Source of the DNA: Flectonema sp. DT1601
Lineage: Eukaryota
Direction of reading: 5' to 3'
Assembly (NCBI GenBank): GCA_964019425.1
Contig: OZ025806.1
Location: forward strand, 1-64,000
Length of the DNA stretch: 64,000 nucleotides
Shown here: in pieces, positions 9,001-32,107 of the stretch
Layout of the letters: every line of letters starts with the position of its first letter
Numbering within the stretch: position 1 is the stretch's first letter
Made by a program: the position numbers and the translations under genes
The notes under the pieces: generated by a model
Told to the model about the DNA's origin: nothing
Database searches by the model: none
What the model saw: the letters and a program-made list of their open reading frames with translations, nothing else

Positions 9001-11262
9001 GGGTTTGCGGGTTTGCGGGTTTGCGGGTTTGCGGGTTTGCGGGTTTGCGGGTTTGCGGGTTTGCGGGTTTGCGGGTTTGCGGGTTTGCGGGTTTGCGGGT
9101 TTGCGGGTTTGCGGGTTTGCGGGTTTGCGGGTTTGCGGGTTTGCGGGTTTGCGGGTTTGCGGGTTTGCGGGTTTGCGGGTTTGCGGGTTTGCGGGTTTGC
9201 GGGTTTGCGGGTTTGCGGGTTTGCGGGTTTGCGGGTTTGCGGGTTTGCGGGTTTGCGGGTTTGCGGGTTTGCGGGTTTGCGGGTTTGCGGGTTTGCGGGT
9301 TTGCGGGTTTGCGGGTTTGCGGGTTTGCGGGTTTGCGGGTTTGCGGGTTTGCGGGTTTGCGGGTTTGCGGGTTTGCGGGTTTGCGGGTTTGCGGGTTTGC
9401 GGGTTTGCGGGTTTGCGGGTTTGCGGGTTTGCGGGTTTGCGGGTTTGCGGGTTTGCGGGTTTGCGGGTTTGCGGGTTTGCGGGTTTGCGGGTTTGCGGGT
9501 TTGCGGGTTTGCGGGTTTGCGGGTTTGCGGGTTTGCGGGTTTGCGGGTTTGCGGGTTTGCGGGTTTGCGGGTTTGCGGGTTTGCGGGTTTGCGGGTTTGC
9601 GGGTTTGCGGGTTTGCGGGTTTGCGGGTTTGCGGGTTTGCGGGTTTGCGGGTTTGCGGGTTTGCGGGTTTGCGGGTTTGCGGGTTTGCGGGTTTGCGGGT
9701 TTGCGGGTTTGCGGGTTTGCGGGTTTGCGGGTTTGCGGGTTTGCGGGTTTGCGGGTTTGCGGGTTTGCGGGTTTGCGGGTTTGCGGGTTTGCGGGTTTGC
9801 GGGTTTGCGGGTTTGCGGGTTTGCGGGTTTGCGGGTTTGCGGGTTTGCGGGTTTGCGGGTTTGCGGGTTTGCGGGTTTGCGGGTTTGCGGGTTTGCGGGT
9901 TTGCGGGTTTGCGGGTTTGCGGGTTTGCGGGTTTGCGGGTTTGCGGGTTTGCGGGTTTGCGGGTTTGCGGGTTTGCGGGTTTGCGGGTTTGCGGGTTTGC
10001 GGGTTTGCGGGTTTGCGGGTTTGCGGGTTTGCGGGTTTGCGGGTTTGCGGGTTTGCGGGTTTGCGGGTTTGCGGGTTTGCGGGTTTGCGGGTTTGCGGGT
10101 TTGCGGGTTTGCGGGTTTGCGGGTTTGCGGGTTTGCGGGTTTGCGGGTTTGCGGGTTTGCGGGTTTGCGGGTTTGCGGGTTTGCGGGTTTGCGGGTTTGC
10201 GGGTTTGCGGGTTTGCGGGTTTGCGGGTTTGCGGGTTTGCGGGTTTGCGGGTTTGCGGGTTTGCGGGTTTGCGGGTTTGCGGGTTTGCGGGTTTGCGGGT
10301 TTGCGGGTTTGCGGGTTTGCGGGTTTGCGGGTTTGCGGGTTTGCGGGTTTGCGGGTTTGCGGGTTTGCGGGTTTGCGGGTTTGCGGGTTTGCGGGTTTGC
10401 GGGTTTGCGGGTTTGCGGGTTTGCGGGTTTGCGGGTTTGCGGGTTTGCGGGTTTGCGGGTTTGCGGGTTTGCGGGTTTGCGGGTTTGCGGGTTTGCGGGT
10501 TTGCGGGTTTGCGGGTTTGCGGGTTTGCGGGTTTGCGGGTTTGCGGGTTTGCGGGTTTGCGGGTTTGCGGGTTTGCGGGTTTGCGGGTTTGCGGGTTTGC
10601 GGGTTTGCGGGTTTGCGGGTTTGCGGGTTTGCGGGTTTGCGGGTTTGCGGGTTTGCGGGTTTGCGGGTTTGCGGGTTTGCGGGTTTGCGGGTTTGCGGGT
10701 TTGCGGGTTTGCGGGTTTGCGGGTTTGCGGGTTTGCGGGTTTGCGGGTTTGCGGGTTTGCGGGTTTGCGGGTTTGCGGGTTTGCGGGTTTGCGGGTTTGC
10801 GGGTTTGCGGGTTTGCGGGTTTGCGGGTTTGCGGGTTTGCGGGTTTGCGGGTTTGCGGGTTTGCGGGTTTGCGGGTTTGCGGGTTTGCGGGTTTGCGGGT
10901 TTGCGGGTTTGCGGGTTTGCGGGTTTGCGGGTTTGCGGGTTTGCGGGTTTGCGGGTTTGCGGGTTTGCGGGTTTGCGGGTTTGCGGGTTTGCGGGTTTGC
11001 GGGTTTGCGGGTTTGCGGGTTTGCGGGTTTGCGGGTTTGCGGGTTTGCGGGTTTGCGGGTTTGCGGGTTTGCGGGTTTGCGGGTTTGCGGGTTTGCGGGT
11101 TTGCGGGTTTGCGGGTTTGCGGGTTTGCGGGTTTGCGGGTTTGCGGGTTTGCGGGTTTGCGGGTTTGCGGGTTTGCGGGTTTGCGGGTTTGCGGGTTTGC
11201 GGGTTTGCGGGTTTGCGGGTTTGCGGGTTTGCGGGTTTGCGGGTTTGCGGGTTTGCGGGTTT
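1..11262 (+). repeat. (GGGTTTGC)n tandem array, ~1,400 copies; telomere-like satellite, open at window start
   Basis: Continuous 8-mer repeat; the only variant seen is an inserted A at 166 (GGTTTAGCGG). Ends GCGGGTTT|TCCACCACG. Confidence 0.99.
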
Positions 11263-11407
11263 TCCACCACGAAAAAAAATTCGCAGAAAAGATTTAGTAG
11301 CAGAGTGGGGCTGGGGCTCGGTCTTAGCTTTAACGTTAACATAGGAGCGGCGAAAATTACGTCTTTCGGGGTGAAAAGCCAAAAAAAAAAATACATTAAT
11401 AATATAT

Positions 11408-13741
11408 GAGGATGTGCAGAAACCCCCCCCCCCCCAATTTTTACCAGGCTATCCTGTGGGCACCTAACCCCTAATCCGAGCCCACCACCCCACGAAAATA
11501 CTATCCAAAAAACTCAAATCCGGTACTGGGGCACCCTTTTACTGCCCACCAGTTTAAAAACTTCACTTTTTTGACTGTTTCTAGTAACAATTGCCTTGTA
11601 AGCTGTGTAACACTGTGGTAGAAAGTATGTTCATAAATTGTTTTTCCTGAAGGCGCTCAGAAATTGTATAAAAGAATAGATACAACTTGTACTTATTATT
11701 ATGCATATTTCAGCTTTTTTCCTTTCAAACTGTGGGGGTGTTCATCCCGCTTAAGCTTTTTTTTTTTCTTCTCTTTCTCTTGTTTTTCTGATTCCAGTTT
11801 CCTGGCCTTTAACTCCTCGAATAAGTTTTGTTTTCTCTCTCTTGCCCGTGCAAGAGTCCGAGTAAGACTGCCATGCTCTTCTTCAACAGGTTCAGGAGCA
11901 GGTTTATCATCATCACTGCTGAGATCATCGTCGTAATGCGGGTCATTCATCGGGAGCTTGTTGCTAATTTTAGGGACAAAGGTAAGCTTCCTTTGCTTCT
12001 CTTTAAGTTGAAGTTCAAAGCAATCCTCAGGATCTGAACCTGAAAGGGGGCTCACAAAGATCTTATCGTTGATCCTTTGAAAACAGCTGATGGAAGTGAT
12101 GTCTCGGATGTCATATTCTCCGACTGTAAAGTCTTGTTTGCGGAATCGAGTGTACAATGCAGTAGTGTTTGCGATCATAGGCTCGATTGCCGCTTTGACA
12201 TCTTGGAGCGTACAGATTTTCCGCGACTTGGACGCGAGTGTCAGTGCAGATGTGACATTGCCGAAGTGACGGTCACACTCAGACTTGCCATGCCGACCAG
12301 GGAAAAAGTTAACCGAGCTGATTAACTTATTCTGCAGAAGAGAACTGATGACGGTTTTATTCTCAAAGTGTTTACCGGCATCAGCCCAAAAATGAATCAT
12401 CTTGTCCTTCCCATGCATCAAGAAGAACTTCTTCAGAACCAGATAAGTCACTGCGGCACCCTGGTTGATGTGTGGGAGGAGAAAGTCGATATGGTTTCGC
12501 TGAACCTCAGTTCCAAGCTGCTCATGTAGTACACATCCAAGTAGACTGTATTTCCCCTGTTGATAGAAAAGAGAATTTGGCTCTTCTGGCATCAGTGGAA
12601 GCTTCCCCTTCTCTTTGTAATCCAGGGTCATAATTATATGATCACCGGGATTAGATGTGTGTTCACGATACACCTGACACTGCTCCCTTGCTTCGTCGAT
12701 GTGGGAATCTATCTCGATAATTCCTTTGATATACTTCTCAGCTTCAGGCTTGTCGCGCCGTGGAAGGCTGTCCCGCTGATGTAGAAGGCTCCAAAGACCC
12801 CACCCATTACGCCGACCAGCATCCCAGATACATGTGGTGAAGACTGAAGACGTTAGGCGGGCAAGCTTGTTACGGAGACCCTTGCCTGTGAGACAGTAGT
12901 TGCACACATCTGTACGGCGTCGTAACTGCTGAAACTCTACTCCACGTAGAGAACGGTACTGTGTGTATGAGATGGTGTCTTTTAGAGGGGGGTAATCGTA
13001 GACTAGTTGATACGAGGTCATCATGTTTTCAACAGTAACTGCCTCTCCCCTTCTTTTTGATTCGCGGATGAGTTTCTTGCTGGTACTACTAGAGGCCGCA
13101 AGGTGTTCATCTCGAACCTGATTTTTCATGTCGGGTGTTACAACTGATGGGCGACCACCGACATCCACCACCTTGGCTTTGTTCTTCCATAAATCTTTTC
13201 CTACTTTTATCCCAGTCTTGTTCACTTCTGCCATTCCCCAGCCACTGGAACATAGAGCCTGTAGCAGTGCCCTCTGATGAAGCAGCTCTAGATTCTCGAA
13301 AAACTCTGGTAATCCCAAGGGTGTACTTGTTTTGAGCAGCATTGCTTGACCCATCACTGCCAGCAAGAGTGACCCAGGATTACCACCCGATATCGTACTC
13401 AGCAGTTCTCTCACGGACTGTATTATTCTCCATGTCTCACCATTACTTGTCCTATCATTCCAGTTCTCAAAGGAACTCAGAGTTCTAACAAATTTCTGCA
13501 ATGTAGTTCCTAAGCTCATTTTTGAGTATTTTAGGGGTAACTAACAGAGGTATAAGGCAAATGTTACTAGAAACAGTCAAAAAAGTGAAATTTTTAAACT
13601 GGTGGGCAGTAAAAGGGTGCCCCAGTACCGGATTTGAGTTTTTTGGATAGTATTTTCGTGGGGTGGTGGGCTCGGATTGGGTGTTAGGTGCCCACGGGAT
13701 AGCCTGGTAAAAATTGGGGGGGGGGGTTTCTGCACCGCCTC
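11408..13741 (-). mobile_element. Sola2-like DNA transposon, apparently intact
   Basis: ~190-bp TIRs (11408-11600 / 13551-13741) with GAG...CTC termini. ATAT 4-bp TSD (11404-11407, 13742-13745) is confirmed against the empty site in spacer copy 2. Confidence 0.85.
11699..13519 (-). CDS. Sola2-type DDD transposase, 606 aa
   Basis: ATG ORF inside the TIRs. DVCNYC, IMTLDYKEK, FWADAGKHFEN and FFPGRHGKSECDRHFG resemble Sola2 catalytic motifs; K-rich NLS-like tail. Confidence 0.8.
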   Translation of the reverse strand: MSLGTTLQKFVRTLSSFENWNDRTSNGETWRIIQSVRELLSTISGGNPGSLLLAVMGQAMLLKTSTPLGLPEFFENLELLHQRALLQALCSSGWGMAEVNKTGIKVGKDLWKNKAKVVDVGGRPSVVTPDMKNQVRDEHLAASSSTSKKLIRESKRRGEAVTVENMMTSYQLVYDYPPLKDTISYTQYRSLRGVEFQQLRRRTDVCNYCLTGKGLRNKLARLTSSVFTTCIWDAGRRNGWGLWSLLHQRDSLPRRDKPEAEKYIKGIIEIDSHIDEAREQCQVYREHTSNPGDHIIMTLDYKEKGKLPLMPEEPNSLFYQQGKYSLLGCVLHEQLGTEVQRNHIDFLLPHINQGAAVTYLVLKKFFLMHGKDKMIHFWADAGKHFENKTVISSLLQNKLISSVNFFPGRHGKSECDRHFGNVTSALTLASKSRKICTLQDVKAAIEPMIANTTALYTRFRKQDFTVGEYDIRDITSISCFQRINDKIFVSPLSGSDPEDCFELQLKEKQRKLTFVPKISNKLPMNDPHYDDDLSSDDDKPAPEPVEEEHGSLTRTLARARERKQNLFEELKARKLESEKQEKEKKKKKLKRDEHPHSLKGKKLKYA

Positions 13742-13827
13742 ATATATTAAGATTTTTACGTAAGCACGGTAAGTTTTCATACATTTTCTTCTGCTTGGCA
13801 AACAGAGGTGTACAGGCAATAAAAAAA

Positions 13828-13938
13828 CCCCAAAAGAAGAGAATTCTTCCTAAGAGGTTAGCTAAATATTCTAAGCAAGCTTAGATATTGAGACTGTACC
13901 AATAAAGTACAGAAACTGTAGCTTTAGAATCGTTGGTT
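13828..13938 (-). ncRNA. Spliced-leader RNA gene (39-nt exon 13938-13900; intron starts GTACAG)
   Basis: Minus strand reads AACCAACGATTCTAAAGCTACAGTTTCTGTACTTTATTG|GTACAG, a euglenozoan (diplonemid-type) SL; ends at a T7 tract (13821-13827). Confidence 0.95.
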
Positions 13939-14046
13939 AACCTTAAAAAGTAATTACCCCAGGTAATTAGAAATTGCGTGGCTTTTAGAACTACTAGCTA
14001 GTAGTAGCAGAAATGCTTGCTTGCGGGTAGGGAAGCAAGATAAAAA

Positions 14047-14165
14047 GCCTGCAAGCACCCGGGGTTCCCACGTGATCACTCACCGCAGTACTAACCAGGC
14101 CTGCTGGTGCTTAACTTCCCAAATCGGGCGGGATGGGGTGCATTCACCAGAGTATGGCCGCAGGC
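14047..14165 (-). rRNA. 5S rRNA gene
   Basis: 119 nt GCCTGCGGCCATAC...GAAGTTAAGC...GGTTAGTACT...GCAGGC with complementary ends, followed by a T5 Pol III terminator. Confidence 0.96.
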
Positions 14166-14178
14166 AATAGCAGATTTC

Positions 14179-15830
14179 TTTTTTTTTTTTTTTTTTGGTT
14201 ACACTCGTCTGTGCTTCCAGACTCTTTGTTTTTGTTCTTTTCACTTCTTTGTTTTGTCTTTCTTTTATACTTTCTTTTGGTTTAAGTCTGACAAATTGGA
14301 AAACACGGGAAACATAGGTAGGCTCCGCCTGAGGACGTAAGAAGAGCGGCAACGGAAAAGAATAAATGGTCACGCGTCCTTGAAATTGGACACATGAAGC
14401 CAATTCGGTTGCCATTCCTACCATCGATAAGGAAAACAAAGAGTCGAGCATATAACTAGAGCGGTGGTCAAAGACCACTTGAACAGCCCGAAGGGCTGCC
14501 CTCAAGAGAAATTTATAAGGAGAATAGGAGAAGAAGGAGACAGGAGTGTTGGAAGAGACACTGCGACAACACCGAAGGTGATGTGCAGTTACCCAACCAG
14601 GAGATGATTGGTAATGATGAAAATACTAAATATTGATAAAACACTTAAATGGCGACTACGTGTCACCTACACAATTCCAAAGTCTCAGGTTGGATGCTTG
14701 TTCCATCCACCTGATCAACATCGCTACTGAAGGAAGCCAGCTGGTGGCAAAGATTGCGCCAAGACTGGCAGGAGTGCCGTTGATGAGGATTAGATCACTT
14801 GATCGGTCCCATTTGCCTGTCAATGTAGAAAAGCCAAGGATTTCATATCTGGCTGCATCGAGTTTCTGTGATGGACAGCCTACGAGTAGGTGGAGTTGGT
14901 TGGATGGAGCGCTATGGCAGAATGGACATTTGATGGCTTTCCGCCAGTTTTGCATCAGTGGATGACACCCCGTTCTGAAATTCGCAATTCTGATTTCATC
15001 GCTCCTTTTCATGCCGGGAGGATATTTTATCGCGGCACCTTTGACGGTGTTTTTATAGCAGGTGTAACCAATTCTGTTCCAAATGTCCTTCGTGATCCCC
15101 CTCCTCACTCGGGATTTGTGATAGAAGAAGGATCCTCGGATTGGGATTTGAGGGAGGTATCTGTTGTGAGCCGACTTCTTAGCAAGTTCATCAACTTCGT
15201 CGTGTGCTTCTATCCCCATGTGAGAAGGGATGAATTGAAGATGTACTTTCATACCGCAGTTCCGTAGGTTCTCGAGGATGCCGAGGGATCTGGTGTTTCT
15301 CTGTTTACACCTGCCACCCTTCAACTCGTCCAACAATGATTTTGAGTCGGTATAGATTCTGACTGACTTAGTTAACCCGTCTTTCTGTACCTTCCAGTTT
15401 AAGTAGTTTGCCGCATTTTTCAAGGCATGTTGCTCAGTTCTATAGCTGCAATCCGCACGCACTAATCTGGTCGCATGAGCACGTTTCTTTCCGTCTCGTG
15501 ACTTAGCAATGGGAGCCGCGCCTGACGCACTCGAAGAGTATGAACCGTCACAGTTGATCACCATGTCCACCGGAGGAAGTGTCGCGTTGTAGGTAAGGAA
15601 TTTCTCCCTGTCCACTGCGGGATCAGGGGATTTTATAAAACCGCAGCTGTTGCTGATTTGAACATTGCCCGAAGCAATCCAAGGTTTGATAGAGTCAGGT
15701 TGAACGATCCCCACGCTTTCTAGTTGACCTTCAGTACGGGGAATGAGGCCACCCCAGAAGCTTCGAGGCGATGCGAGTGAGTTGGTGTCCGGCACCCAGG
15801 TCATGGCTTTGTACCTGAAATAGGCGATTT
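14179..15830 (-). mobile_element. 5'-truncated Ingi/I-group non-LTR retrotransposon (copy A, diverged subfamily)
   Basis: Poly(A) at 14179-14196; 3' UTR nearly identical to copies B and C. Candidate TSD AAGAAAT (plus strand ATTTCTT at 14174-14180 and 15840-15846). Confidence 0.92.
14656..15830 (-). pseudogene. C-terminal part of ORF2 (RNase H + CCHC), truncated
   Basis: NCDGS, YTDS, FIPSHMGI..HDEVDELAK, CPFC..HLLVGC; collinear with the end of the full-length ORF2. Confidence 0.9.
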
Positions 15831-16001
15831 TTATTTTTTATTTCTTGGGAGTTCAGTGGGATGACCCACCACGAAAAAAAATTCGCAGAAAAGATTTAGT
15901 AGCAGAGTGGGGCTGGGGCTCGGTCTTAGCTTTAACGTTAACATAGGAGCGGCGAAAATTACGTCTTTCGGGGTGAAAAGCCAAAAAAAAAAATACATTA
16001 A

Positions 16002-17718
16002 CCCTTTAATAAGAGGCTGAAAACCCTGTTTTTGAGAAAAATCGAAAAATTTGACAAAGGGGAAAAGGGGTGTGGGGAAAAATACAAAAAAATTACAGGG
16101 TGAAAGACACCCCCCCGCGCATTGAAAAAAAACTGAGGTCAGCCCGCAAGGGGGCCAAAATAACTTGAGAAAATGCAACAACAGCCTAAAAAAACACTGT
16201 TGCTTAGGATCCCTGGGTTCGCTTTGATTTTGGCAATGTTGTAGGAGTAGAGTGCTTCCGTTTCATGTTTTTCGGTGGGATATGATTGTGTGTAGCAAAG
16301 GTATGGTTGTTGCAAACAGGGGCTGAATACTTGTCAATATTTTCGTGATATTGTTCGAAGCAGGGATCCACGCATAAGAAAACCTCGCTTTTTGAACAAG
16401 AAGTCGATGACCTTACTTTTTTTGAGAACAAATCCGTGAACTGCAGTCCCCAAAAATATCAAATTTTCGTAGGTAGTGACATTTTGTGTGAGTTTGGTGT
16501 GTTCCATGATCAATAAGTTGAGAACATGGCCTTTTTTTGAACTGAGCATATGTCCCGACGTCTTTTTCAGACTTCTTTTGGAGGGTGAAAACATTGAAGA
16601 TAGAAATCCCTAACAAGTAGTGAAAGACTTTCAGGGTCCAGCGTTTTGTCATCAGAGTTCTTCTTGCCTTCCCCCTGATACCGTCTACGAGGTCAACACC
16701 ACCCATTAGTTTGTTGTACTGATGGATCTGTACCGGTAAGTCGATGGTCACTTTTTGATGGATTTCCTTATTTTAGTCCATCACGTGGCTGTCTCATAAT
16801 TCTCCTCGAGAGGCAATGTGCTGAGGACATGTACTTCTTTTGGATTGCCCCTGAATTTATGTGATGCACATTGTGCTAGGACTGAAAGTACGAGGCAGAG
16901 AACTTCTCCACCCGTCCCTGCGCCTCCGCCTTATTGATCTCGGACCATTTGGGAACTATTGTTTCCCAAAAGCTGCGGATTTTGTAGAGCTTGTCAGCAG
17001 GTACGGGGTTGGTGACAGTGTAAAACTTTAGATAGGTTCGAATTTAGAGGAACCGATCTCAGGAAGCGAAGTGGGGTGTGTATGCTGGGTCTGATGTACC
17101 GTTCCTGTAATCTGAGATATTTGGTTTATTACAGAGACCCACGAGGATATTGAGTCCTAAAGAGAGTTTGAGTTCAGCTACGTTAAGATTGAGTGCCTAG
17201 TTGTTGCTGCAGTGCGAAATCATCTCATCACCTTTGGGGTGAACACAAGTTCAAATTTCTGCAGTTCCTTCATCAATTTCAGGTCTGACATGTTCTGCAA
17301 GGACCGCCGAAACGTGCGTCGTTTTACCTTGGTGATTTTCTTGCTCCATTTCAGAGGGGAAATGCTTGGCTCTATTGTACTCTTTTCATCGCTCGAAGAA
17401 GACTCAGGAGCACCCAAATCTGGGATAGGTGACCCTACTGAATCATTTTCGATGGAAATAGTTTTAGGGATTTTATTTTTTGGCCGAAAACATGGGATAG
17501 TCATGGGCAACCTGGCTAAGACTGTTCCCAGTGCAGAAAAAAAAAAATGAATTTTTTCTCAGAAAAAGCTGGTGATTTTTGCAGCACGATCCCACATAAA
17601 ATTTGTCGTTTTTTGGCAGCTCTGGCTCCACCCTTGTACTCACAAGGTACATTTTTCCCCTTTGTCAAAAAAAAAAAAACGCGAAAGGCCACTATAGTGG
17701 CCTTCAGGGCTTAAAGGG
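16002..17718 (-). mobile_element. piggyBac transposon with decayed transposase
   Basis: TTAA TSDs (15998-16001, 17719-17722) and CCCTTTAA...TTAAAGGG ends. Broken frames carry YNKLMGGVDLVD...KRWTLKVFHYLL and Cys-rich LCVDPCFEQYH. Confidence 0.9.
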
Positions 17719-17769
17719 TTAATAATATATATTAAGATTTTTACGTAAGCACGGTAAGTTTTCATACAA

Positions 17770-17948
17770 TCTTATTTAAGGGCAAGCGCCGACGTAAGTG
17801 GAAGACCTCTTCACCAGAATCTCTAAAATCAAAAGGCAGTCACCTGAAAGACCAACTGAAGAAGGGGAACAGCTTTAACTTCGCCTTCAAGAAGATTAAA
17901 GAACTCCAACAGGACGCTGGTAAGGACATCAGCGTATCAAATATATCA
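17770..17948 (+). pseudogene. Inverted internal fragment of a related retrotransposon ORF2
   Basis: Translates LFKGKRRRKWKTSSPESLKSKGSHLKDQLKKGNSFNFAFKKIKELQQDAGKDISVSNIS, matching ORF2 LFKGKRGRKWKTSTPDS...FAFKKIKELQQDAGKDISVNNIS. Confidence 0.85.
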
Positions 17949-18149
17949 TCAAATCCTACTTTCAAAACTACAAAGAATGGGCATCCAGCACTCTCATCGT
18001 GAGAGTCAAAACCCTCCTTCTCTTTTCTTCTCCTGCTAGCCCTTTCTCCACTTCTTGTACTAGCCGCATCACATCCAAAAGCAGCTCCTTACAACTGTCA
18101 AAATTCCATTTAGGTAATTTGCCACCGAAACTGAGCACCAAACAAAAAC

Positions 18150-18222: not shown

Positions 18223-18238
18223 ACATAATCGACATTCC

Positions 18239-18904
18239 TTTTTTTTTTTTTTTTTGGTTACACTCGTCTGTGCTACCAAACTCTTTGTTTTTGTTCTTTT
18301 CACTTCTATGTTTTGTCTTTCTTTTATACTTTCTTTTTTGACTTAAGTCTGACAAATTGGAAAACACGGGAAACATAGGTAGGCTCCGCCTGAGGACGTA
18401 AGAAGAGCGGCAACGGAAAAAATAAATGGTCACGCGTCCTTGAAATTGGACACACGAAGCTAATTCGGTTACCATTCCTACCATCGATAAGGAAAACAAA
18501 GAATCGAGCATATAACTTGAGCGGTGGTCAAAGACCACTTGAACAGCCCGAAGGCCTGCCCTCAAGAGAAATTAATAAGGAGAATAGGAGAAGAAGGAGA
18601 AAGGAGTATTGGAAGGGACACTGAGACAACACCGAAGGTGATGTGCAGTTACCCAACCAGGAGATGATTGATAATGATGAACATACTAAAAATAATAACA
18701 AGTTGATATTGGCGACTACATGTCACCTACTTTACTTCCAAAGTCTAAGGTTAGATGTTTGTTCCATCCACCTTATGATCAACGCGAGTGATGGAAGCCA
18801 CGCCAAAGTGAAGAGAGCTTCAAGGTTAGGAATTTCGTTGGCAATAATAAGTTCTCGATCGCGATCCCACTTGCCGGTCAGTGTTGAGAAGCCCAGGATT
18901 TTGA
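18239..18904 (-). mobile_element. Short 5'-truncated retrotransposon (copy B)
   Basis: Poly(A), 3' UTR and the last ~56 codons of ORF2; bounded by ATTCCTTTT at 18234-18242 and 18905-18913. Confidence 0.92.
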
Positions 18905-19395
18905 ATTCCTTTTTTTTTTTTTCGGTTACACTCGTCTGTGCTTCCAGACTCTTTGTTTTTGTTCTTTTCACTTCTTTGTTTTGTCTTTCTTTTATACTTT
19001 CTTTTGGTTTAAGTCTGACAAATTGGAAAACACGGGAAACATAGGTAGGCCCCGCCTGAGGACGTAAGAAGAGCGGCAACGGAAAAATAAATGGTCACGC
19101 GTCCTTGAAATTGGACACATGAAGCTAATTCAGTTACCATTCCTACCATCGATAAGGAAAACAAAGAATCGAGCATATAACTAGAGCGGTGGTCAAAGAC
19201 CACTTGAACAGCCCGAAGGCCTGCCCTCAAGAGAAATTTATAAGGAGAATAGGAGAAGAAGGAGACAGGAGTGTTGGATGAGACACTGCGACAACACCGA
19301 AGGTGATGTGCAGTTACCCAACCAGGAGATGATTGATAATGATGAAAATACTAAAATAATAACAAATTGATATTGGCGACTACATGTCACCTACT

Positions 19396-22300
19396 TTACT
19401 TCCAAAGTCTAAGGTTAGATGTTTGTTCCATCCACCTTATGATCAACGCGAGTGATGGAAGCCACGCCAAAGTGAAGAGAGCTTCAAGGTTAGGAATTTC
19501 GTTGGCAATAATAAGTTCTCGATCGCGATCCCACTTGCCGGTCAGTGTTGAGAAGCCCAGGATTTTGAACCTGGCCGAGTTGAGTTTGGGAGATTGACAT
19601 CCCTGCAGCAGGTGAACCTGTGAGGACGGTTCGCCACAAAATGGGCAGTCGATCGTCTTGCGCCAGTTCTGAATTAGCGGGTGACATCCTGTCCGGAAGT
19701 TCGCTATCCGTATCTCGTCGGCTCTTTCCATCCCAGGAGGGTATTTAACGGAACGGCCTCTGATGAGGTGTTTGTAGCAGGTGTAACCACTCACGTTAAG
19801 CAGATCCTTTTTGATGCAGCGCTTAACATGTGATGATCGCGAGAAGTAAGTGCCTTTGACTAGCACAGGTCGGATGTTCTTGTTGTGCGCTGCTTCCTTT
19901 GCAAGCGCGTCAACTTCATCGTGAAACTCGATTCCAATGTGCGAGGGGATGAATTGCAAATGCACTTTCATTTCACACATGCGCAGGTATTCCAGTATCT
20001 TCAAGGACTCAGTATTCTTCTGTCTGCACCTTCCACCCAGCAGTTCATCCAGAAGGGATTTTGAGTCCGTGAATATCCTTACGGATTTCATTGAACGATC
20101 TTTGCTAAACACCGTTTTCAGATGTCTAGCCGCGTTCTTCAGAGCATGTTGTTCAGTCCTGTAGCTGCAGTCAGCTTGATAAAGCCTAGACGCGTATGCA
20201 GATCGAAGGCCGCTACGTGACTTGGCAATATGAGCCGCACCGGCCGCGCCGGAAGCAGAGTAAGAACCATCGCAGTTGATTACCATGTCGACAGGAGGTA
20301 ACGTTCCAATGTACGACATGAATTTTTCTTTGTCCACCGCAGGGTTCGCGGACTTCGGAAATCCGCAGCTGTTGCTAATCCTAAGGTTCGTCGGAGATAC
20401 CCAGGGTTCCATCGAGTCAGGCTGCACTAAGCACTGGCTTTCACGCTGACTATCAGTGCCAGGGATTAGGCCAGCCCAGTAGCTTTGTGTTGAGGCGAGT
20501 CTGTTTGTATTAGGTATCCAAGTCATGGCTTTATACCTGTAGTACGCAATTTTTGTCTGCTTTTCAATCTGACGTTTAAAAGGATACATGTCAGACTCCC
20601 ACAACAGTAACTCTCTTGGCGTACACTTGCTGCATCCAGTAACCAGTCTGGCGACCTTCCTCAGTTCGAAGTCGATGCTGTCAACGCTGCTGCTTATCAG
20701 CCAACCAAAACTGTCAAGCGCATACGAGATTCTCGCGGTTACATAAAGGTTCTTAACCATGTTAAGAGTCTTGTAGTCCAGTTCGTACGGCTGGAGGCAC
20801 TGCAGAAGTGATATCCCCCTCTTTAATTCTTCGTGAATCTTGCCTACTTGTTTGTGGAAGGTGAGCCTGTCGTCGATGTGAACCCCGAGGTATTTTACTG
20901 AGTCGACTATCGGTAACAGAAAGGCAGTTTTGAATATTGCTCTCACAACCATAATGCTGTCCTCACGAACGACGTATTGCAGCATCAAGTTGTCGAGTTC
21001 TTCTTGTGTCTTGATTGGGATTCCTCCAATTTCAAGAATCGTTTCGCCACTTTGAAGCATGGGTCTGGGTGATTTGAGATTGATATGATTCTCGATGTCA
21101 CCATAGTCAAGTTTAAGCATGCGTTCCTCAACAGATCTAGAGAAAGGCAGTTCGCGATTACACGTATCGTTTAGTACTATGCCCTTCGAGCGAACATTCA
21201 TCTTAAGCGCACAGGTTTTGGAGACTGATAAGGCCATGTCGTTTTCAAAACACCATTGATCCACTTTGTCGAGTACTAACTGAGCATTCGAAAGAGCTTC
21301 TTCCATGTTTGATCCTGACACCACACATGCTGTGTCATCCGCATACAGAGCAGACGTCGTTGTTTCCTTCTCCAGTTCCAAAATCTTGCAGAGGTCATCA
21401 ACGTAGATAAGATAGAGAAGAGGACCCAGGATCGATCCCTGGGGAACCCCCTTAGCCAGAGTACGGAATTCGCTAAAATACCCATTCGCTTCAACTCTAA
21501 CCTTCCTGTTTGTAAGAAAGTCTGTGATCCATCTGATAATAACATTCGGAACACCCATCTTTACTAATTTTAATAAAAGTATCTTATGGTTGATCCTGTC
21601 AAACGCAGCAGTAAAGTCGAATGACAAGAACACTGATCTCTTTTCTTCCATGTGGCTCCTTACGATAGCATCTACTAGAACGGTGATCTGCTCGCAGGTA
21701 TTTCTCCCCTTTCTGAATCCAGCCTGTAGTGGGCTGAGCGACGAATGTTTTGTGAGCCAGTGCATGAGTCGGTCATACACGAGCCTCTCCGCAAGTTTCC
21801 CAACAACCGAGGTGAGCGTTATTGGTCTGAAACTCTTTAGTTCATTACGAGGTTTCCCTGCCTTGAACATGGGCTTGATTAGTCCCTGTTTCCATTGGTA
21901 CGGTACTTTTGAAGTCTTCCAGGAAGTGTTAATAATTCTCAAGAGGTATTCCACTGTTGCCGGAGTGAAGTTTTTGATCATCTCATTGTGAACTCCATCA
22001 GGTCCTGCAGCCTTGCGGGTCTTCAGGTTCTTAATCGCAGCTTTAATTTCAGCCATTGTGAAATCACAGCAAATATCTATTTCATTATCACCTTCTGAGA
22101 GTGCGGGGGCCTCTAGCGATAATATTTCCGATTTCGAGACAAACAGGTCCAAGAATGCTGATGGGAGATCGCAGTCAGAGATGTTGTTGACACTGATATC
22201 CTTACCAGCATCTTGCTGCAGTTCTTTGATCTTCTTAAACGCAAAGGCAAAGTTGTTACCCTTGTCAAGTTGATCACGTAGGTGGACACCCTTCGATTTG

Positions 22301-23307
22301 GTAGAATCAGGGGTTGACGTCTTCCACTTTCGTCCCCGTTTCCCTTTGAAAAGGAGACGTCGACGAATGAATTTAGCCGCCACTTCATGCAGTATGTTGT
22401 TAAAGAGCTTGGCATTCGCAGTTGCATCATCGGAGAGTCTTGATTTTCTAATTCTCTTTTCGAGCATGGTCCCAAAGCAGTTCCAGCCCGTAGACTTGAA
22501 GTCCCATACAACGCGTTTCTTCGAACCTATCGTGGCCCGTGCAAGTTGGCACATGGGATCCAGTACGGTGTAGAGAGGTCGATGATCTGACCCATGTTTA
22601 TTATCTTCTTCAATTGCACTAAATTCTTCAAGAACCATCGAGTTTGAAAAGAATACTACATCTGGCGAGGTACCACCCCCCGGGACGTCAGGAAAAGGCC
22701 TTGTGATTGACCCCATCTTGTTAGCAACCAGTAGATCATTTTGAGCTGCCCATGCATGTAGAGTTGAACCTGCTCTCGTCGATTTAAGTGACCACACCGG
22801 ATGATGGGCATTAAAGTCACCCGCGACGATTGCTTTCGTTGAGACTGGAAGATCTGACTCTCTGATCATGCATCCCGGGGGAGCATAAACATTGATGATG
22901 TCAATCTTTCCACCTATGTTGACCTTCACGACCTCGACATCATTTAAGTGTGGCGGAAGCTCCATGTTCAAACGCTGCTGAGTGTGGCATTTTTTCACCA
23001 TAGAAATAACCCCTCCACCTCGTGTTGCCCTATCATCCCGATAGGTGAAATAGTCCGTGTGCGAAATTACATCATTCGCCCAAGTCTCCTGTAAGCACAG
23101 TACGTCAGGCGCATAGACATTAAGCAGCTTGTGAATATAAGCGCCTTTGTTCCCCATCGATCGACAGTTCCAGCTCAGTAGAGATATGAGAGAGTTGCCA
23201 GGGCCAGGGTTGCGTTCGACGTCGCCTGCCTTTAGCAGCAGTTCACGAGCCGTATCCTTTTCCACAAGTGAGTTGGTCGGACTGAGTTCATCCTCATCGT
23301 CATCTAG
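19396..23307 (-). CDS. ORF2 polyprotein: 2A peptide - AP endonuclease - RT - RNase H - CCHC; no ATG before the first APE motif
   Basis: APE: SWNCRS, CLQET, GDFNAHH, GSDH. RT: KAAGPDG, FRPITLTS, QAGFR, DFTAAFD, GVPQGS, YADD, YLGV. RNase H: NCDGS, FTDS, PSHIG. C-terminal CPFC..HLLQGC. Confidence 0.95.
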   Translation of the reverse strand, partial: LDDDEDELSPTNSLVEKDTARELLLKAGDVERNPGPGNSLISLLSWNCRSMGNKGAYIHKLLNVYAPDVLCLQETWANDVISHTDYFTYRDDRATRGGGVISMVKKCHTQQRLNMELPPHLNDVEVVKVNIGGKIDIINVYAPPGCMIRESDLPVSTKAIVAGDFNAHHPVWSLKSTRAGSTLHAWAAQNDLLVANKMGSITRPFPDVPGGGTSPDVVFFSNSMVLEEFSAIEEDNKHGSDHRPLYTVLDPMCQLARATIGSKKRVVWDFKSTGWNCFGTMLEKRIRKSRLSDDATANAKLFNNILHEVAAKFIRRRLLFKGKRGRKWKTSTPDSTKSKGVHLRDQLDKGNNFAFAFKKIKELQQDAGKDISVNNISDCDLPSAFLDLFVSKSEILSLEAPALSEGDNEIDICCDFTMAEIKAAIKNLKTRKAAGPDGVHNEMIKNFTPATVEYLLRIINTSWKTSKVPYQWKQGLIKPMFKAGKPRNELKSFRPITLTSVVGKLAERLVYDRLMHWLTKHSSLSPLQAGFRKGRNTCEQITVLVDAIVRSHMEEKRSVFLSFDFTAAFDRINHKILLLKLVKMGVPNVIIRWITDFLTNRKVRVEANGYFSEFRTLAKGVPQGSILGPLLYLIYVDDLCKILELEKETTTSALYADDTACVVSGSNMEEALSNAQLVLDKVDQWCFENDMALSVSKTCALKMNVRSKGIVLNDTCNRELPFSRSVEERMLKLDYGDIENHINLKSPRPMLQSGETILEIGGIPIKTQEELDNLMLQYVVREDSIMVVRAIFKTAFLLPIVDSVKYLGVHIDDRLTFHKQVGKIHEELKRGISLLQCLQPYELDYKTLNMVKNLYVTARISYALDSFGWLISSSVDSIDFELRKVARLVTGCSKCTPRELLLWESDMYPFKRQIEKQTKIAYYRYKAMTWIPNTNRLASTQSYWAGLIPGTDSQRESQCLVQPDSMEPWVSPTNLRISNSCGFPKSANPAVDKEKFMSYIGTLPPVDMVINCDGSYSASGAAGAAHIAKSRSGLRSAYASRLYQADCSYRTEQHALKNAARHLKTVFSKDRSMKSVRIFTDSKSLLDELLGGRCRQKNTESLKILEYLRMCEMKVHLQFIPSHIGIEFHDEVDALAKEAAHNKNIRPVLVKGTYFSRSSHVKRCIKKDLLNVSGYTCYKHLIRGRSVKYPPGMERADEIRIANFRTGCHPLIQNWRKTIDCPFCGEPSSQVHLLQGCQSPKLNSARFKILGFSTLTGKWDRDRELIIANEIPNLEALFTLAWLPSLALIIRWMEQTSNLRLWK

Positions 23308-23310
23308 TCA
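23200..23310 (-). other. Recoding cassette: in-frame UGA-CUAG stop followed by a 2A StopGo motif (LLLKAGDVERNPG|P)
   Basis: AAC TGA CTA GAT GAC GAT GAG...; 14 open codons connect the ORF1 stop to the track's ORF2 start in the same frame. Exact DxExNPGP motif. Confidence 0.85.
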
Positions 23311-24957
23311 GTTGAGATCAAAGTCCGAATCGTTACTTTCCATTTCTACGTCACGGTTTTTATCACTACCCTGCTTAGCAGCAGATTCGGTGGGCGGTGT
23401 TGTTGTTTGTGCTGTTGCTGGTGCTGGCGTTGGTGTTGGTGCTGATGGTGCTGGCGCTGGTGTTGGTGCTGATGTCGGCTGCTGAGTTGGCTGTTGTGGT
23501 TGAGGAGTTGTTTTTTGTCTCTTCAGGGTTCCCGTTAGTTTTTGAGCCGCGTCGCCTGGGTTGTAGGTTGGGCCTAGCGGTTTTCTGTCAGTTCGTTTAA
23601 CTTCTTTGTTTATCACAAGGTATTCATTAGTACCTATGCTTACGAAGTTGGGCGGTTGAGATTTCGCAATTGCAACAATTGTAGTACTCCCTCCTTTATG
23701 GAAAGAAGCAACAACTGTGTGTCCCCAGTTGTGTGAGGACTTCAAGAAGTCGCTGATCTGCGCTGTCGAGTACTTACGAATCGCCATCGAATTTATAACA
23801 AACCTGTCGCCCGAGGGCAGTGCAGGCTTGATTGCCGCGTTGAGCTTAATGCTGACCCTGATATTACAGTCAGGGTGGACTCGGAGCCCAAAACAGCTTT
23901 TAAACCTGCACATGTAGAATTTTCCTTTGAATTCATCAAGTGCAGAAGCCTTGGACTTCGCTGCCAGGAAGCCAAGGTCGTTTTTGAATTGCAACGTTGG
24001 CCAAACGTCACTTCCGTTCGACCAACTCGGGTTTCTGAAAAAGACATTCTTGGGTTTGTCAGTTTCGGGTTCGCTGTTGTTGTATTCCAGAACCTCGTGT
24101 ACTTGGTTTCTGGGGACTCTGAAAGCCATCGAGGTGTGGGACTCGTTCTTTCTGTAGCTAAAGGGGTCCGCCTTTATCTTCAATTTCTTTAGAATATCGG
24201 TCGTTTTGACGGTCAATTCTTTCTCAGCTGATTTACCCCCGTCTTGGATGAATAGAACTGGGTTGGGAGTTGGAATCTGGTAGCTAGTTGCTGCTTTAGA
24301 AAAGTCGTCACCAAACACGTGCGTGTAAAATACGCGCCTGATCTCGCAGACGCCACCCTTTTTTATCACCGGTAATGCTACTGGAACGGTGCTCTTTGTG
24401 AGCGGGATTTTGCTGATAGCAGCCCAACGGCCGCTCTTCTTTGTTTGGCGGAGTGCTTCTAAGTCTAGCTTCGAACGAACTAAAACAAGACCAGAGGTAA
24501 GGTTGTTTGTAGCATTAGCTGCTACGTCGTAACTGATGGTGGCCACAGCGCCTGCCCACGCACCGTGAATGTGCCACTCCGGGTAGCTTGCTTTTGCCTT
24601 TCCCTTCGTGGTTTGATTGTCCTTCATTGCTGTCGGTATCGGCAATGAGAACGGCTTCGTACTCGTTTGTTGATTAGAAGCTGTAGATGCTCCTGTAGTT
24701 GGTTGGTTGACACCTGTAGTTGAGGGTGTCGTCGCTTCTGCTGCCGTCGTCGCGGTCGCTTCCGTCCCACCACTCCCATCGAGTGTGTCCGGTGTCCTCC
24801 TCTTCATCTCCGGGTTCCCACCTTCTGACCCAGCTACGAATTGAACGATCCCCATTAGGAGATTTGCCACCCTTCTTTCCTTCTCTTGCTCCGGGATCCC
24901 GTCTTCTCCCACTATCTTCAGGAGGTCCGATACCAACCTCTTCAGGTTGTCTCTCAT
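23308..24957 (-). CDS. Retrotransposon ORF1, 549 aa, no family recognised
   Basis: Starts at the first ATG after the SL relic (MRDNLK). Basic core, T/P/A-rich linkers, acidic end. Confidence 0.85.
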   Translation of the reverse strand: MRDNLKRLVSDLLKIVGEDGIPEQEKERRVANLLMGIVQFVAGSEGGNPEMKRRTPDTLDGSGGTEATATTAAEATTPSTTGVNQPTTGASTASNQQTSTKPFSLPIPTAMKDNQTTKGKAKASYPEWHIHGAWAGAVATISYDVAANATNNLTSGLVLVRSKLDLEALRQTKKSGRWAAISKIPLTKSTVPVALPVIKKGGVCEIRRVFYTHVFGDDFSKAATSYQIPTPNPVLFIQDGGKSAEKELTVKTTDILKKLKIKADPFSYRKNESHTSMAFRVPRNQVHEVLEYNNSEPETDKPKNVFFRNPSWSNGSDVWPTLQFKNDLGFLAAKSKASALDEFKGKFYMCRFKSCFGLRVHPDCNIRVSIKLNAAIKPALPSGDRFVINSMAIRKYSTAQISDFLKSSHNWGHTVVASFHKGGSTTIVAIAKSQPPNFVSIGTNEYLVINKEVKRTDRKPLGPTYNPGDAAQKLTGTLKRQKTTPQPQQPTQQPTSAPTPAPAPSAPTPTPAPATAQTTTPPTESAAKQGSDKNRDVEMESNDSDFDLN

Positions 24958-25015
24958 AATTGCTTTTTCCTGTGAAACGTACCCACTGATTCTTACCAAT
25001 ATTAGGTTGCGAAAT

Positions 25016-25072
25016 CAATAAAGTACAGAAGTACAGAAAAGTACAGAAGTACAGAAGCACAGAAGTACAGAA
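25016..25072 (-). repeat. Stuttered SL relic at element 5' end: six TTCTGTAC-type units, the last continuing into TTTATTG
   Basis: The final 15 nt (TTCTGTACTTTATTG) equal the 3' end of the SL exon at 13914-13900. Confidence 0.9.
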
Positions 25073-25446
25073 TTCCTTTTATTTCTATAAGCCAATGTCT
25101 CTATTAGTTTTCTGACGATATCAAATATTTCTATCCCTTTATCAGTTCTCACACCCCTGTCTTCATCACAAGAAAACTTATATTTAAATTAAGTCCCACC
25201 CACCCTTCCCCCGCCGGTGCCCCGTCGAATCGAAACAGCCCGGTACAACCCCTACGCAGAAGTAATCTGCACCACAGTGTAGATTCTTCTAAGTGATCTC
25301 AGACTTGTTAACTGCATGTTCATTCAATTAAGTATACTTCTCTTTCCCAGGTGCATACAGTATAGGAAGGCTAATTACTCATTATAGTTTTATGTCTGTC
25401 AGAAAACCCGCACAAAATCGACTCTCACCAGGCAATGGTAGGAAAT

Positions 25447-25473
25447 CAATAAAGTACAGAAAGTACAGAAACT
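25447..25473 (-). repeat. Second stuttered SL relic (AGTTTCTGTACTT-TCTGTACTTTATTG-ATTTC)
   Basis: Matches the SL 3' part twice and is followed by the same ATTTC as copy C. Confidence 0.8.
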
Positions 25474-26766: not shown

Positions 26767-26792
26767 TGCGGGTTTGCGGGTTTGCGGGTTTG
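26767..26792 (+). repeat. Interstitial 3-copy GGGTTTGC seed
   Basis: TGCGGGTTTGCGGGTTTGCGGGTTTG; same unit and strand as the large array. Confidence 0.9.
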
Positions 26793-30315: not shown

Positions 30316-32107
30316 TTACTGCGGTAAATTAGTGTACATGTCACTAAAGTCAAAGGACTTAACATTTCTATAGCTGAGACAAGTGTAGTTAGCTTTAATA
30401 TACTTAGCTACCTCATCAACATTGTCAACTATGAAATATTTCTGTATTCCGGTTTTCCTTTCTTCCTCTTTTTCTATCGTTTTAATTCTAAACGAACGCG
30501 TTTTTTTTAAGATGCCTGACAGCTCTTTTGACATCTCTGTAGTTGCAGTGAGAGGTTTGCCTCTAAACAAACACTTGTCACCTTCCTTTTGAATATCGAA
30601 GTTTGTTTTTGAGGAAGAACCAGCTATGAAACGAAACTTCATCGGTTTCTTGTGAAACTTCGGACTACCATAAAGATATGGTAAGTTGTTTGTGTGTCTG
30701 AAGCCGTGTTTTTTGTTAAGTTTTTCTAACCTAATCATTTCCTCCTTGGTCTCTTCAATGTTGTATTCTTTGTAGACATTACAACCGTTGATTTGGTTGT
30801 TGAGGGTTTGTTGGTACAAATGTCTACAACACAGAGCTAGGTCGTGTGTTGTCTTGTCAATCTGGAGAAAATCCATGTGTTCTTTGATTTTAGTAATCTC
30901 CTTTTGTACCGTTTGTAGTTCATTATTGTTTTGTAATGGTGGCATTTTACTGATGTAACCTCTCAGGGTTGTTTTTAGAAAAATCGCAAGATTAGTAAAC
31001 TTGCTGTGATCATAATGCAATGAGATGAAATCATCAACTGCTGATTCTACTTCTTTGAGGATCTCATCGCTGTTATCATGTAGGCGATAACGGCCACCTT
31101 TGAGAAGTAGGTTTTTGAATCTCTTTGTTGTCAGCAGCTTTGAAGCGTGAATTAGAACGTGAGAGTCTGTTCGTTTATTTTTGTCAACAAAGTTTTGGCA
31201 AGGGCATTCTTTAGCCGATTTCAAATCTGTTTTTTGGAAGAAACCTACTCTCCGTCGCATGATCACAAAGGGTGTCTCTGAGAGTTGTATTGAGTCTACG
31301 AGAGACTTTCATTCTGGTTAGAGGTTCTGTGCTTCCTGCTGCTAGTTCTAAAGCTTCTTTGCAATTAAATATTCCATTGAAAGGAATATTCTCCATGGCA
31401 GGGGGTACAAATTTGACTTTTAACCAGGCTGCTTTTTGTTTGCCCTGTCTTTTTTCTGATTCTTCAGTGAGACATAACAAGCGTTTTTGTAAAGCATTGA
31501 TAATTATATTCATCTTATCAAGTATTTGGTGCTTAGCATCAATATATTGAAAAATTCAACGTACGGAGTATGTCCATTCCGAGGTAATATCTTCATTTAA
31601 AGAATCGAGATTCAGCAGATGGTTGATCTGTCTTCGGACTGAAGCAAATTTCCCTGCATTGGTTTCTATTGTGAGTTTGTAATCCTCCGTATGATACCAG
31701 GTTCTGAGTTGTGATTTGTCACGTTTCTCTTTGGGTCTGTCTCTTTTATCATCAGGGATAATGGGGGGGTTTACCTTCCGTTTTTTCCCTCTCTCGACGT
31801 TCAAATCGATCCATGTTCAAAGGAGCGTTTAGGTGTTTCAGCCAGAAAACTTCGCCCGGGTCTGCAGCTGTTCTAAAAACACTAACAGGTAGTTCCAGGT
31901 TTCAGTTGACTTTTTCAAGTGTAGCTGCATAGAGAGGTCCTCCTCTTCGGAAGAGGTATTTCTGTAGGGTCCTTTTCTTGGAGTACCTTGAAGACCAGTG
32001 CGCAAAGCTGTTTTACTCTTAGGTTTAGTCACATGTTTCTTTTTCAAGTTGACTTTATCTTCGTTGGGTTTATTGGTGACATTCTTTGAAATATTCGAAT
32101 TATCCAT
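30316..32107 (-). pseudogene. Penelope-like element RT remnant (frameshifted, truncated after RT motif A)
   Basis: IDKTTHDLALCCRHLY, LPYLYGSPKFHKKPMKFRFIAGS, KSFDFSDMYTNLPQ; upstream frames are broken. Confidence 0.8.

Follow-up and report, generated by a model that had tools for sequence, protein, structure and literature searches.

A full-length LINE in the DNA of Flectonema sp. DT1601 begins with a stuttered relic of the host spliced leader (SL) and, judged from its sequence, probably transposes through an SL-trans-spliced RNA, with extra leader units added by re-priming of the reverse transcriptase (RT), whichever route supplies the splice acceptor. The element, here copy A, lies in the window, by which we mean the whole stretch of 64,000 nucleotides analysed (contig OZ025806.1, positions 1 to 64,000 of the forward strand); it is an APE-RT-RNase H LINE on the minus strand that extends from 25072 as far as a poly(A) near 18910. 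SL nucleotides 25-39 are joined to its first base, likely because the transposing RNA is the SL-trans-spliced mRNA. The features of A, of copies B, C and D, and of the neighbouring host genes are as follows.

13900..13938 (-): exon taken as the host SL, 39 nt, GT donor directly after it
14046..14165 (-): 5S rRNA gene, with the SL exon close by
14174..15837 (-): copy D, 5'-truncated, of another subfamily, 97% to P0002, with a 7-bp candidate target site duplication (TSD)
18022..18096 (-): continuation of copy C ORF1, 25/25 aa identical to P0198
18143..18222 (-): degenerate tRNA-like unit (B-box-like motif, T run), 11 nt past the TSD
18235..18905 (-): copy B, 5'-truncated, subfamily of A and in tandem with it, with poly(A) and third TSD copy
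18906..19395 (-): 3' UTR, poly(A) and second TSD copy of A
19396..23157 (-): ORF2 of A, 1253 aa from the first ATG, with APE, RT, RNase H-like region and C-terminal Cys/His motif
23200..23241 (-): 2A-like StopGo motif (LLLKAGDVERNPGP), directly before the APE domain
23304..23310 (-): in-frame stop TGA CTAG in readthrough-type context, between ORF1 and ORF2
23308..24957 (-): ORF1 of A, 549 aa, no Pfam match
24958..25015 (-): 5' UTR of A, 58 nt
25016..25072 (-): stuttered SL relic of A, five units SL24/25-32/33, then SL25-39
25073..25080 (-): 5' TSD copy of A, AAAAGGAA, a ninth base T being ambiguous
25377..25446 (-): 64-nt 5' UTR and first ORF1 codons of copy C (subfamily 3)
25447..25471 (-): second SL relic, of copy C, one unit SL24-32 plus SL24-39, AG directly before it

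The leader relic and the copies that carry it

Read in order on the minus strand (25072-25016), the relic of A consists of TTCTGTAC, TTCTGTGC, TTCTGTAC, TTCTGTACT, TTTCTGTAC and TTCTGTACTTTATTG, which confirms the six repeat units that the first-pass annotation had placed between the TSD and the 5' UTR; the second unit carries an A>G change. TRF reports a period of 8 with 6.2 copies, and the relic is 75% pyrimidine. Its last 15 nt are identical to SL nt 25-39 of the exon at 13938-13900, and the ORF1 ATG at 24957 lies exactly 58 nt past its final G, so that the claim of a final unit ending at the exact SL 3' end, 58 nt before ORF1, is borne out by the exon itself. The same annotation had the relic beginning next to the SL-internal CAG, which does not hold, as relic A begins at SL25 and the CAG (SL21-23) is missing from A. 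The exact 15-mer SL25-39 is found at three places in the window, namely the SL gene, A and an element head at 25461-25447; with up to two mismatches there are 4 matches against 0.16 expected, a number reached in 0/100 shuffles of the window, and a chance origin of the relic is excluded within the window by this count.

The 39-nt exon is taken as the host SL from its length, its GT donor, its 5S linkage and its likeness to euglenozoan leaders; Rfam gave no SL call for it. Predicted folding gives the exon a hairpin, SL13-23/27-36, with a TTT loop at 24-26. In D. papillatum, a 39-bp SL exon is described in a repeat with 5S in the part of PMC10161547 consulted, the searched supplement files of which hold no mention of trans-splicing.

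The TSD AAAAGGAA occurs three times, at 25080-25073 ahead of A, at 18913-18906 where A meets B, and at 18242-18235 behind B, which follows A head to tail. A contig of run X5 represents the empty target: it matches from 25194 to 25076, then continues directly into the flank behind B, and contains one near-copy of the target motif without any SL repeat. Five runs were listed as matching the window, at shares of 0.05-0.16 and with no RNA run among them, and the contigs aligned to the window leave the SL junction of A uncovered. The three copies together with this empty site show that the TSD of A is real. A repeat at empty target sites had been named in the first-pass annotation as the finding that would count against its reading; since the empty site has none, the SL repeat is part of the element rather than of its target, and a target microsatellite is ruled out as its source. 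Protein P0238 reads across another, uninterrupted copy of A's target and belongs to an insertion in the same flank; it is truncated inside the UTR and is without a relic. Both target sites in the window (2/2) lie 8-11 nt upstream of Pol III-type sequence in the same orientation, as copy D ends 8 nt before the 5S gene within the SL-5S unit, and A and B precede the weak tRNA-like unit, which ARAGORN called at a relaxed threshold only. The P0238 insertion adds to these two Pol III-adjacent sites, few sites in all, and the targets contain an AAAAG motif. Copies are seen stacked head to tail, with A followed by B, and P0220 behind the 3' end of an upstream element. The 5' junctions of A (25072) and B (18905) both read GGAA/TTC on the minus strand, a short palindrome with the target end that may reflect the mode of second-strand joining.

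Copy C is the second relic-bearing copy, and A and B lie inside the block that interrupts it. This patchwork block of about 440 bp, which includes the tRNA-like unit, occupies 25378-25073 and 18234-18097 (-); contigs of three runs stop matching at about 25378, and an inverted RT fragment at 17799-17954 (+), 92% identical to P0002, directly follows C's ORF1 fragment. The C subfamily differs well from that of A, with 44% identity in ORF1 and UTRs that align at 39/65 columns. The same SL39/ATTTC junction is nevertheless found in A, in C and in three copies of a third subfamily, that is, at five junctions in three subfamilies; three of the five junctions were read from peptides (called proteins), so that synonymous changes are possible. 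The ORF1 proteins listed number 43 (15/20, 13/13 and 15/18 cluster members); 28 of these contain the canonical start, and 4 of the 28 were called with an upstream extension. P0220 reads from the 3' end of an upstream element through five lysines, corresponding to poly(A), into FCTLL, which is SL25-39 translated, and then into the UTR, with one unit, and P0213 and P0214 begin at the codon position of SL37-39. The number of units is thus 6, 2 and 1 in the three countable copies (A, C and P0220). AG is missing from relic A and, by translation, from P0220, and is found only before the relic of copy C, where it possibly derives from the target. When shorter proteins were searched for any that cross the junction, a single one was obtained, and it carries no extension; leader read-through was not found among D. 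papillatum ORF1-like proteins.

Coding capacity and possible mode of expression of the element

Pfam matches on ORF2 of A comprise APE at the N-terminus and RVT_1, and an RNase_H match was obtained on copy D, the corresponding A-subfamily region being 65% identical. The cluster that contains ORF2 of A numbers 101 sequences, and at least four more subfamilies occur among ENA proteins; three ENA proteins are identical to window-encoded ones, and the ENA clusters were therefore treated as belonging to the same organism. The nearest named ORF2 relatives are Flectonema neradi transcripts (40-49% identity), and complete ORFs of relatives are found in the Flectonema neradi transcriptome. Together with the 39-nt exon beside a 5S gene, as in D. 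papillatum, these relatives make a diplonemid the most likely host. For ORF1, the predicted fold is a low-confidence model (pLDDT 51) with weak RRM/KH-like matches (best Z 7.6 in the structure search), no Foldseek match at E 0.001 was found, and the ORF1 profile gave no match among viral loci; two short Streptomyces matches to this profile were taken as spurious.

ORF1 and ORF2 of A stand in one frame, in the order ORF1-UGA-CUAG-linker-2A-ORF2, with a single TGA between them (23200-23310). The UGA-CUAG context acts as a readthrough signal in mammalian cells, according to the part of PMC9841425 consulted. We propose as a candidate scheme that ORF1p and ORF2p would both be made from one mRNA, by UGA-CUAG readthrough plus 2A skipping. 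An Asn precedes the stop in 7/7 close ORF1 cluster representatives with intact ends, the tails of which are otherwise unrelated, and is missing in two distant ORF1 representatives.

Probable origin of the stutter and proposed renewal of the 5' end

All stop/realign pairs on the SL with at least 2 bases of microhomology were listed, and the units predicted in this way, TTCTGTAC (stop 25, realign 33), TTTCTGTAC (24, 33) and TTCTGTACT (25, 34), are those observed. All extra units of the two multi-unit copies (6/6) fit a stop at SL24/25, realignment at SL33/34 and a T microhomology of 2-3 nt. It is likely that they were added by RT re-priming between the two T runs of the leader, and the slippage or re-priming within the leader suggested in the first-pass annotation agrees with these unit ends. 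In the predicted structures the stop point, SL24-25, coincides both with the loop of the hairpin that the leader forms by itself and with the base of a helix formed with the UTR. The stutter pattern had 0 matches in viral contigs, as had the junction pattern, and 25 in metagenome contigs, where 0/25 had ORF1 or ORF2 homology; the best metagenome look-alike, L025, is located inside what reads as a bacterial gene. Run X2 holds a 38-nt contig (at 25021-25057) of pure 8-mer repeat with a depth of 33.5, about 10x the element depth. Longer stutters may exist on the evidence of this contig, which is not assignable to the Flectonema host.

Folding of A and C separately predicts a long hairpin across the junction in both, in which UTR nt 24-38 of A pair with SL28-39 plus ATTT. 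A and C share the register of sixteen base pairs, and the four differences are all A/G opposite U and on the UTR strand. When the full leader was placed in front in silico, SL27-32 paired with the UTR at a probability of 0.77 (A) and 0.72 (C), and with its own 5' arm at 0.18 and 0.27, respectively. The 13/13 junction pairs were reached by 13 and 8 of 5000 shuffles, with the geometry borrowed from A and C themselves, and UTR positions are identical between A and C at 19/23 paired and 6/15 unpaired sites (Fisher p 0.013). The duplex of SL25-39 with the UTR was equalled by 289/1000 shuffles and 306/1754 windows for A, which is not significant, and by 39/1000 shuffles and 102/1754 windows for C, which is marginal; folding was equalled by 47/500 (A) and 2/500 (C) shuffles. 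With moderate support, we suggest that the 5' UTR can pair with leader SL28-39 across the junction in both copies. Given that the seven element-encoded positions of the 5' strand are also unchanged, the one-sided change alone is no proof that this strand is supplied by the host.

The proposed cycle would start from a copy transcribed by read-through, to which the capped 39-nt SL would be joined at ATTTC. The resulting mRNA would yield ORF1p and, by readthrough of UGA-CUAG and 2A skipping, ORF2p; the APE would nick A-rich DNA a short way upstream of a Pol III-type gene, and the RT would begin copying at the poly(A). On reaching SL24-25 the RT would halt, the cDNA end (AA or AAA) would slip back to SL33-35, and SL32 to 25 would be copied again, 0 to 5 times, in a telomerase-like manner. 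In the last step, which is the weakest, the new copy would regain a leader, preferably at the TG ending its own relic, where the AG-free and pyrimidine-rich stutter would act as the tract upstream and the nearest AGs would be hidden in the UTR helix.

The main difficulty, not raised in the first-pass annotation, lies in this last step: as the junction dinucleotide is TG, a new copy is without a canonical acceptor at the junction. The nearest AGs are found either inside the predicted helix, 23-30 nt from the start of the UTR, or upstream in the target motif. In T. brucei, TG makes up about 2% of minor acceptors in the part of PMC2916883 consulted. Repeated supply by the host is favoured by the fact that the relics of A (SL25-39) and C (SL24-39) match the SL at every base, whereas the UTRs agree only at 39/65 columns. 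Counted against re-addition is the predicted helix, which would bury the TG junction; counted against an SL-capped intermediate as a whole is that SL1-21 is kept in 0/3 copies with a readable 5' start, and that an AG in the TSD 3 nt before relic A and one directly before relic C would provide a canonical acceptor if the relic were simply inherited. Re-splicing at the relic's own TG is the route that we prefer among all routes, and we hold it only tentatively. A more complete picture can be drawn of a promoterless LINE lineage that would renew its own 5' end in each cycle, with telomerase-like copying of SL25-32 making an AG-free tract, the relic TG acting as acceptor, an anti-leader strand in the UTR aligning the leader, the relic being exchanged for a fresh capped SL and both proteins arising by UGA readthrough and 2A; taken in full, it is rather unlikely.

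Relic-bearing copies might also be mostly dead ends, their source being master copies of one of two kinds: these would have gained a canonical AG before ATTTC, for instance where the element adjoins an AAAAG target motif, or would lie where the exon of an SL RNA gene ends and use the promoter of that gene. In both cases the RNA would be SL-headed. The presence of AAAAG in the targets, the position of copy D in the SL-5S unit and the residence of CRE, SLACS, CZAR and NeSL in SL genes (PMC3636483, in the part consulted) speak for such masters, but all junctions (5/5) are compatible with TG and 0/5 have AG directly before ATTTC, the SL gene in the window is uninterrupted, and the arrangement would have to apply independently to each of three old subfamilies, in which near-intact copies are numerous. 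We regard it as unlikely. Since it overlaps the SL-trans-spliced reading where masters carry a canonical AG, the probabilities that we attach to the different readings do not sum to one.

It is improbable, in our estimate, that the element owns an inherited 5' terminus that goes back to a single capture of a piece of the leader. Trans-splicing or cleavage of the RNA would then take place upstream, the AG of the target motif being one possible site, with the RT stopping within the stutter, and slippage would lengthen the stutter as a disposable buffer against 5' erosion. Such a terminus would need no non-AG acceptor, it would agree with the position of the AGs, one at a distance of 3 nt upstream of relic A and one immediately adjoining relic C on its upstream side, and with the absence of SL1-21 from every copy, and the UTR helix could keep the relic under selection. 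Zero mismatches to the SL over 15-16 nt, at positions outside the helix as well and despite 44% ORF1 identity, are nevertheless hard to reconcile with inheritance, having a probability of about 5e-4 at the UTR's 60% identity if unconstrained, and flank-derived bases or a second complete SL end upstream of the stutter occur in 0/3 readable copies.

A template switch of the RT, away from the element RNA once the relic is reached or entered and onto SL RNA or the leader of any host mRNA, would refresh the relic without splicing of the element RNA. In its favour, each host mRNA matches the relic perfectly over 15 nt, the UTR shows complementarity to SL28-39 and the stutter indicates that the RT re-primes; the switch would not account for how the element RNA is capped and translated, a stop at SL24-25 would be required all the same, and we consider it quite improbable.

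Very improbable as sources of the stutter are dinoflagellate-style recycling at the SL-internal CAG, a target microsatellite and chance, for which an AG directly before SL24 in copy C and similar strings in metagenomes by chance or as microsatellites (25 matches) may be cited: the reuse of the CAG put forward in the first-pass annotation would give 16-nt units ending TTTATTG, seen in 0/6 extra units, the empty site is without a repeat, and the 15-mer count in the window excludes chance.

Relation to known systems and other features of the window

The comparisons in this section draw on excerpts of the papers cited. Element A resembles L1Tc/ingi in its euglenozoan host, its APE, RT and RNase H, its poly(A) and TSD, and in a 2A-like motif directly before the APE (PMC3708506), which in A is predicted from sequence. 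L1Tc/ingi elements, however, have a Pr77 promoter and an HDV-like ribozyme at the 5' end and an unspliced RNA (PMC1874656, PMC4035085), the latter being called general for trypanosomatid LINEs (PMC1874656), whereas A begins with the SL. In addition, Ingi-clade elements are described as being without an ORF1 (PMC3708506), while A has one of 549 aa, in frame via one UGA. No Rfam match to the Pr77/HDV-like ribozyme was found in the window, and a ribozyme descriptor found none in A or C and matched 7/180 background windows, no positive control having been run. In a quick RT tree of 103 rows, a clade of 9 with the Flectonema elements (SH-aLRT 100) has a 2A element of D. japonicum as its sister (94) and stands among rows that bear RNase H; as named ingi or L1Tc elements are not among the rows, A is called Ingi-like and is not assigned as a member.

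In dinoflagellate retrogenes, a truncated leader at the 5' end likewise marks a reverse-transcribed SL-bearing RNA (PMC5585692), and the relics of A and C end exactly at the SL 3' end as relics of that type do. Those retrogenes are host genes with repeats from re-splicing cycles, whereas the present case is an autonomous element with internal SL25-32 units, which we infer to come from one RT event. CRE1/2, SLACS, CZAR and NeSL-1 are also non-LTR elements next to SL sequence, but have a restriction-like endonuclease after the RT and insert into SL genes (PMC3636483); membership of A in this group is ruled out by its N-terminal APE and by a target and 3' flanks without SL. The dictyostelid TRE5 and NLTR-A are APE-type LINEs found shortly upstream of tRNA and 5S genes, TRE5 belonging to the L1 clade and lying 37-54 bp upstream in opposite orientation (PMC5911963), as against 8-11 nt and the same orientation here, in a small sample. 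Re-priming on the leader recalls, as an analogy of mechanism and not of membership, the repeat addition of another RT, with irregular units of 8-9 nt, 0-5 rounds, a position at the element 5' end and a host leader as template setting it apart. That RT is telomerase, which goes several times over a short piece of RNA with a repeated alignment end.

In the literature searched we found no SL-headed LINE from a euglenozoan or a diplonemid, nor a stuttered one, a point on which Repbase and subscription papers may bear. Trypanosomatid LINEs have been described as avoiding trans-splicing, which removes all sequence upstream of the acceptor and would erode copies (PMC1874656), and in the diplonemid lineage the reverse appears to have happened, in three or more old subfamilies with multiple copies. 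The means by which a retroelement preserves its 5' end where every mRNA 5' end is rebuilt thereby becomes a testable question, and the case points to repeat-addition by a LINE RT on host RNA, to a possible guided non-AG acceptor and to an expression scheme for ORF1 and ORF2 that joins readthrough with 2A.

The remainder of the window contains further repeats and genes. An 11.2-kb (GGGTTTGC)n array occupies positions 1-11262, G-rich on the plus strand, which is the reverse of a left telomere, and three more GGGTTTGC units lie at 26767-26792. The segment 11264-11399 is duplicated at 15866-16001. A 606-aa ORF at 11400-13749, without a Pfam match, is located between inverted repeats of about 200 bp, and this region is likely a DNA transposon. 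From their motifs, we take the sequence at about 16000-17720 to be a piggyBac-like relic with TTAA ends and that at 30316-31260 to be a Penelope-like RT fragment. Finally, 39584-63941 on the minus strand holds two giant genes, 99.7% identical over 10.5 kb, with RTX calcium-binding repeats and a His-rich tail, and the copy at 41138-50260 appears frameshifted near its end.
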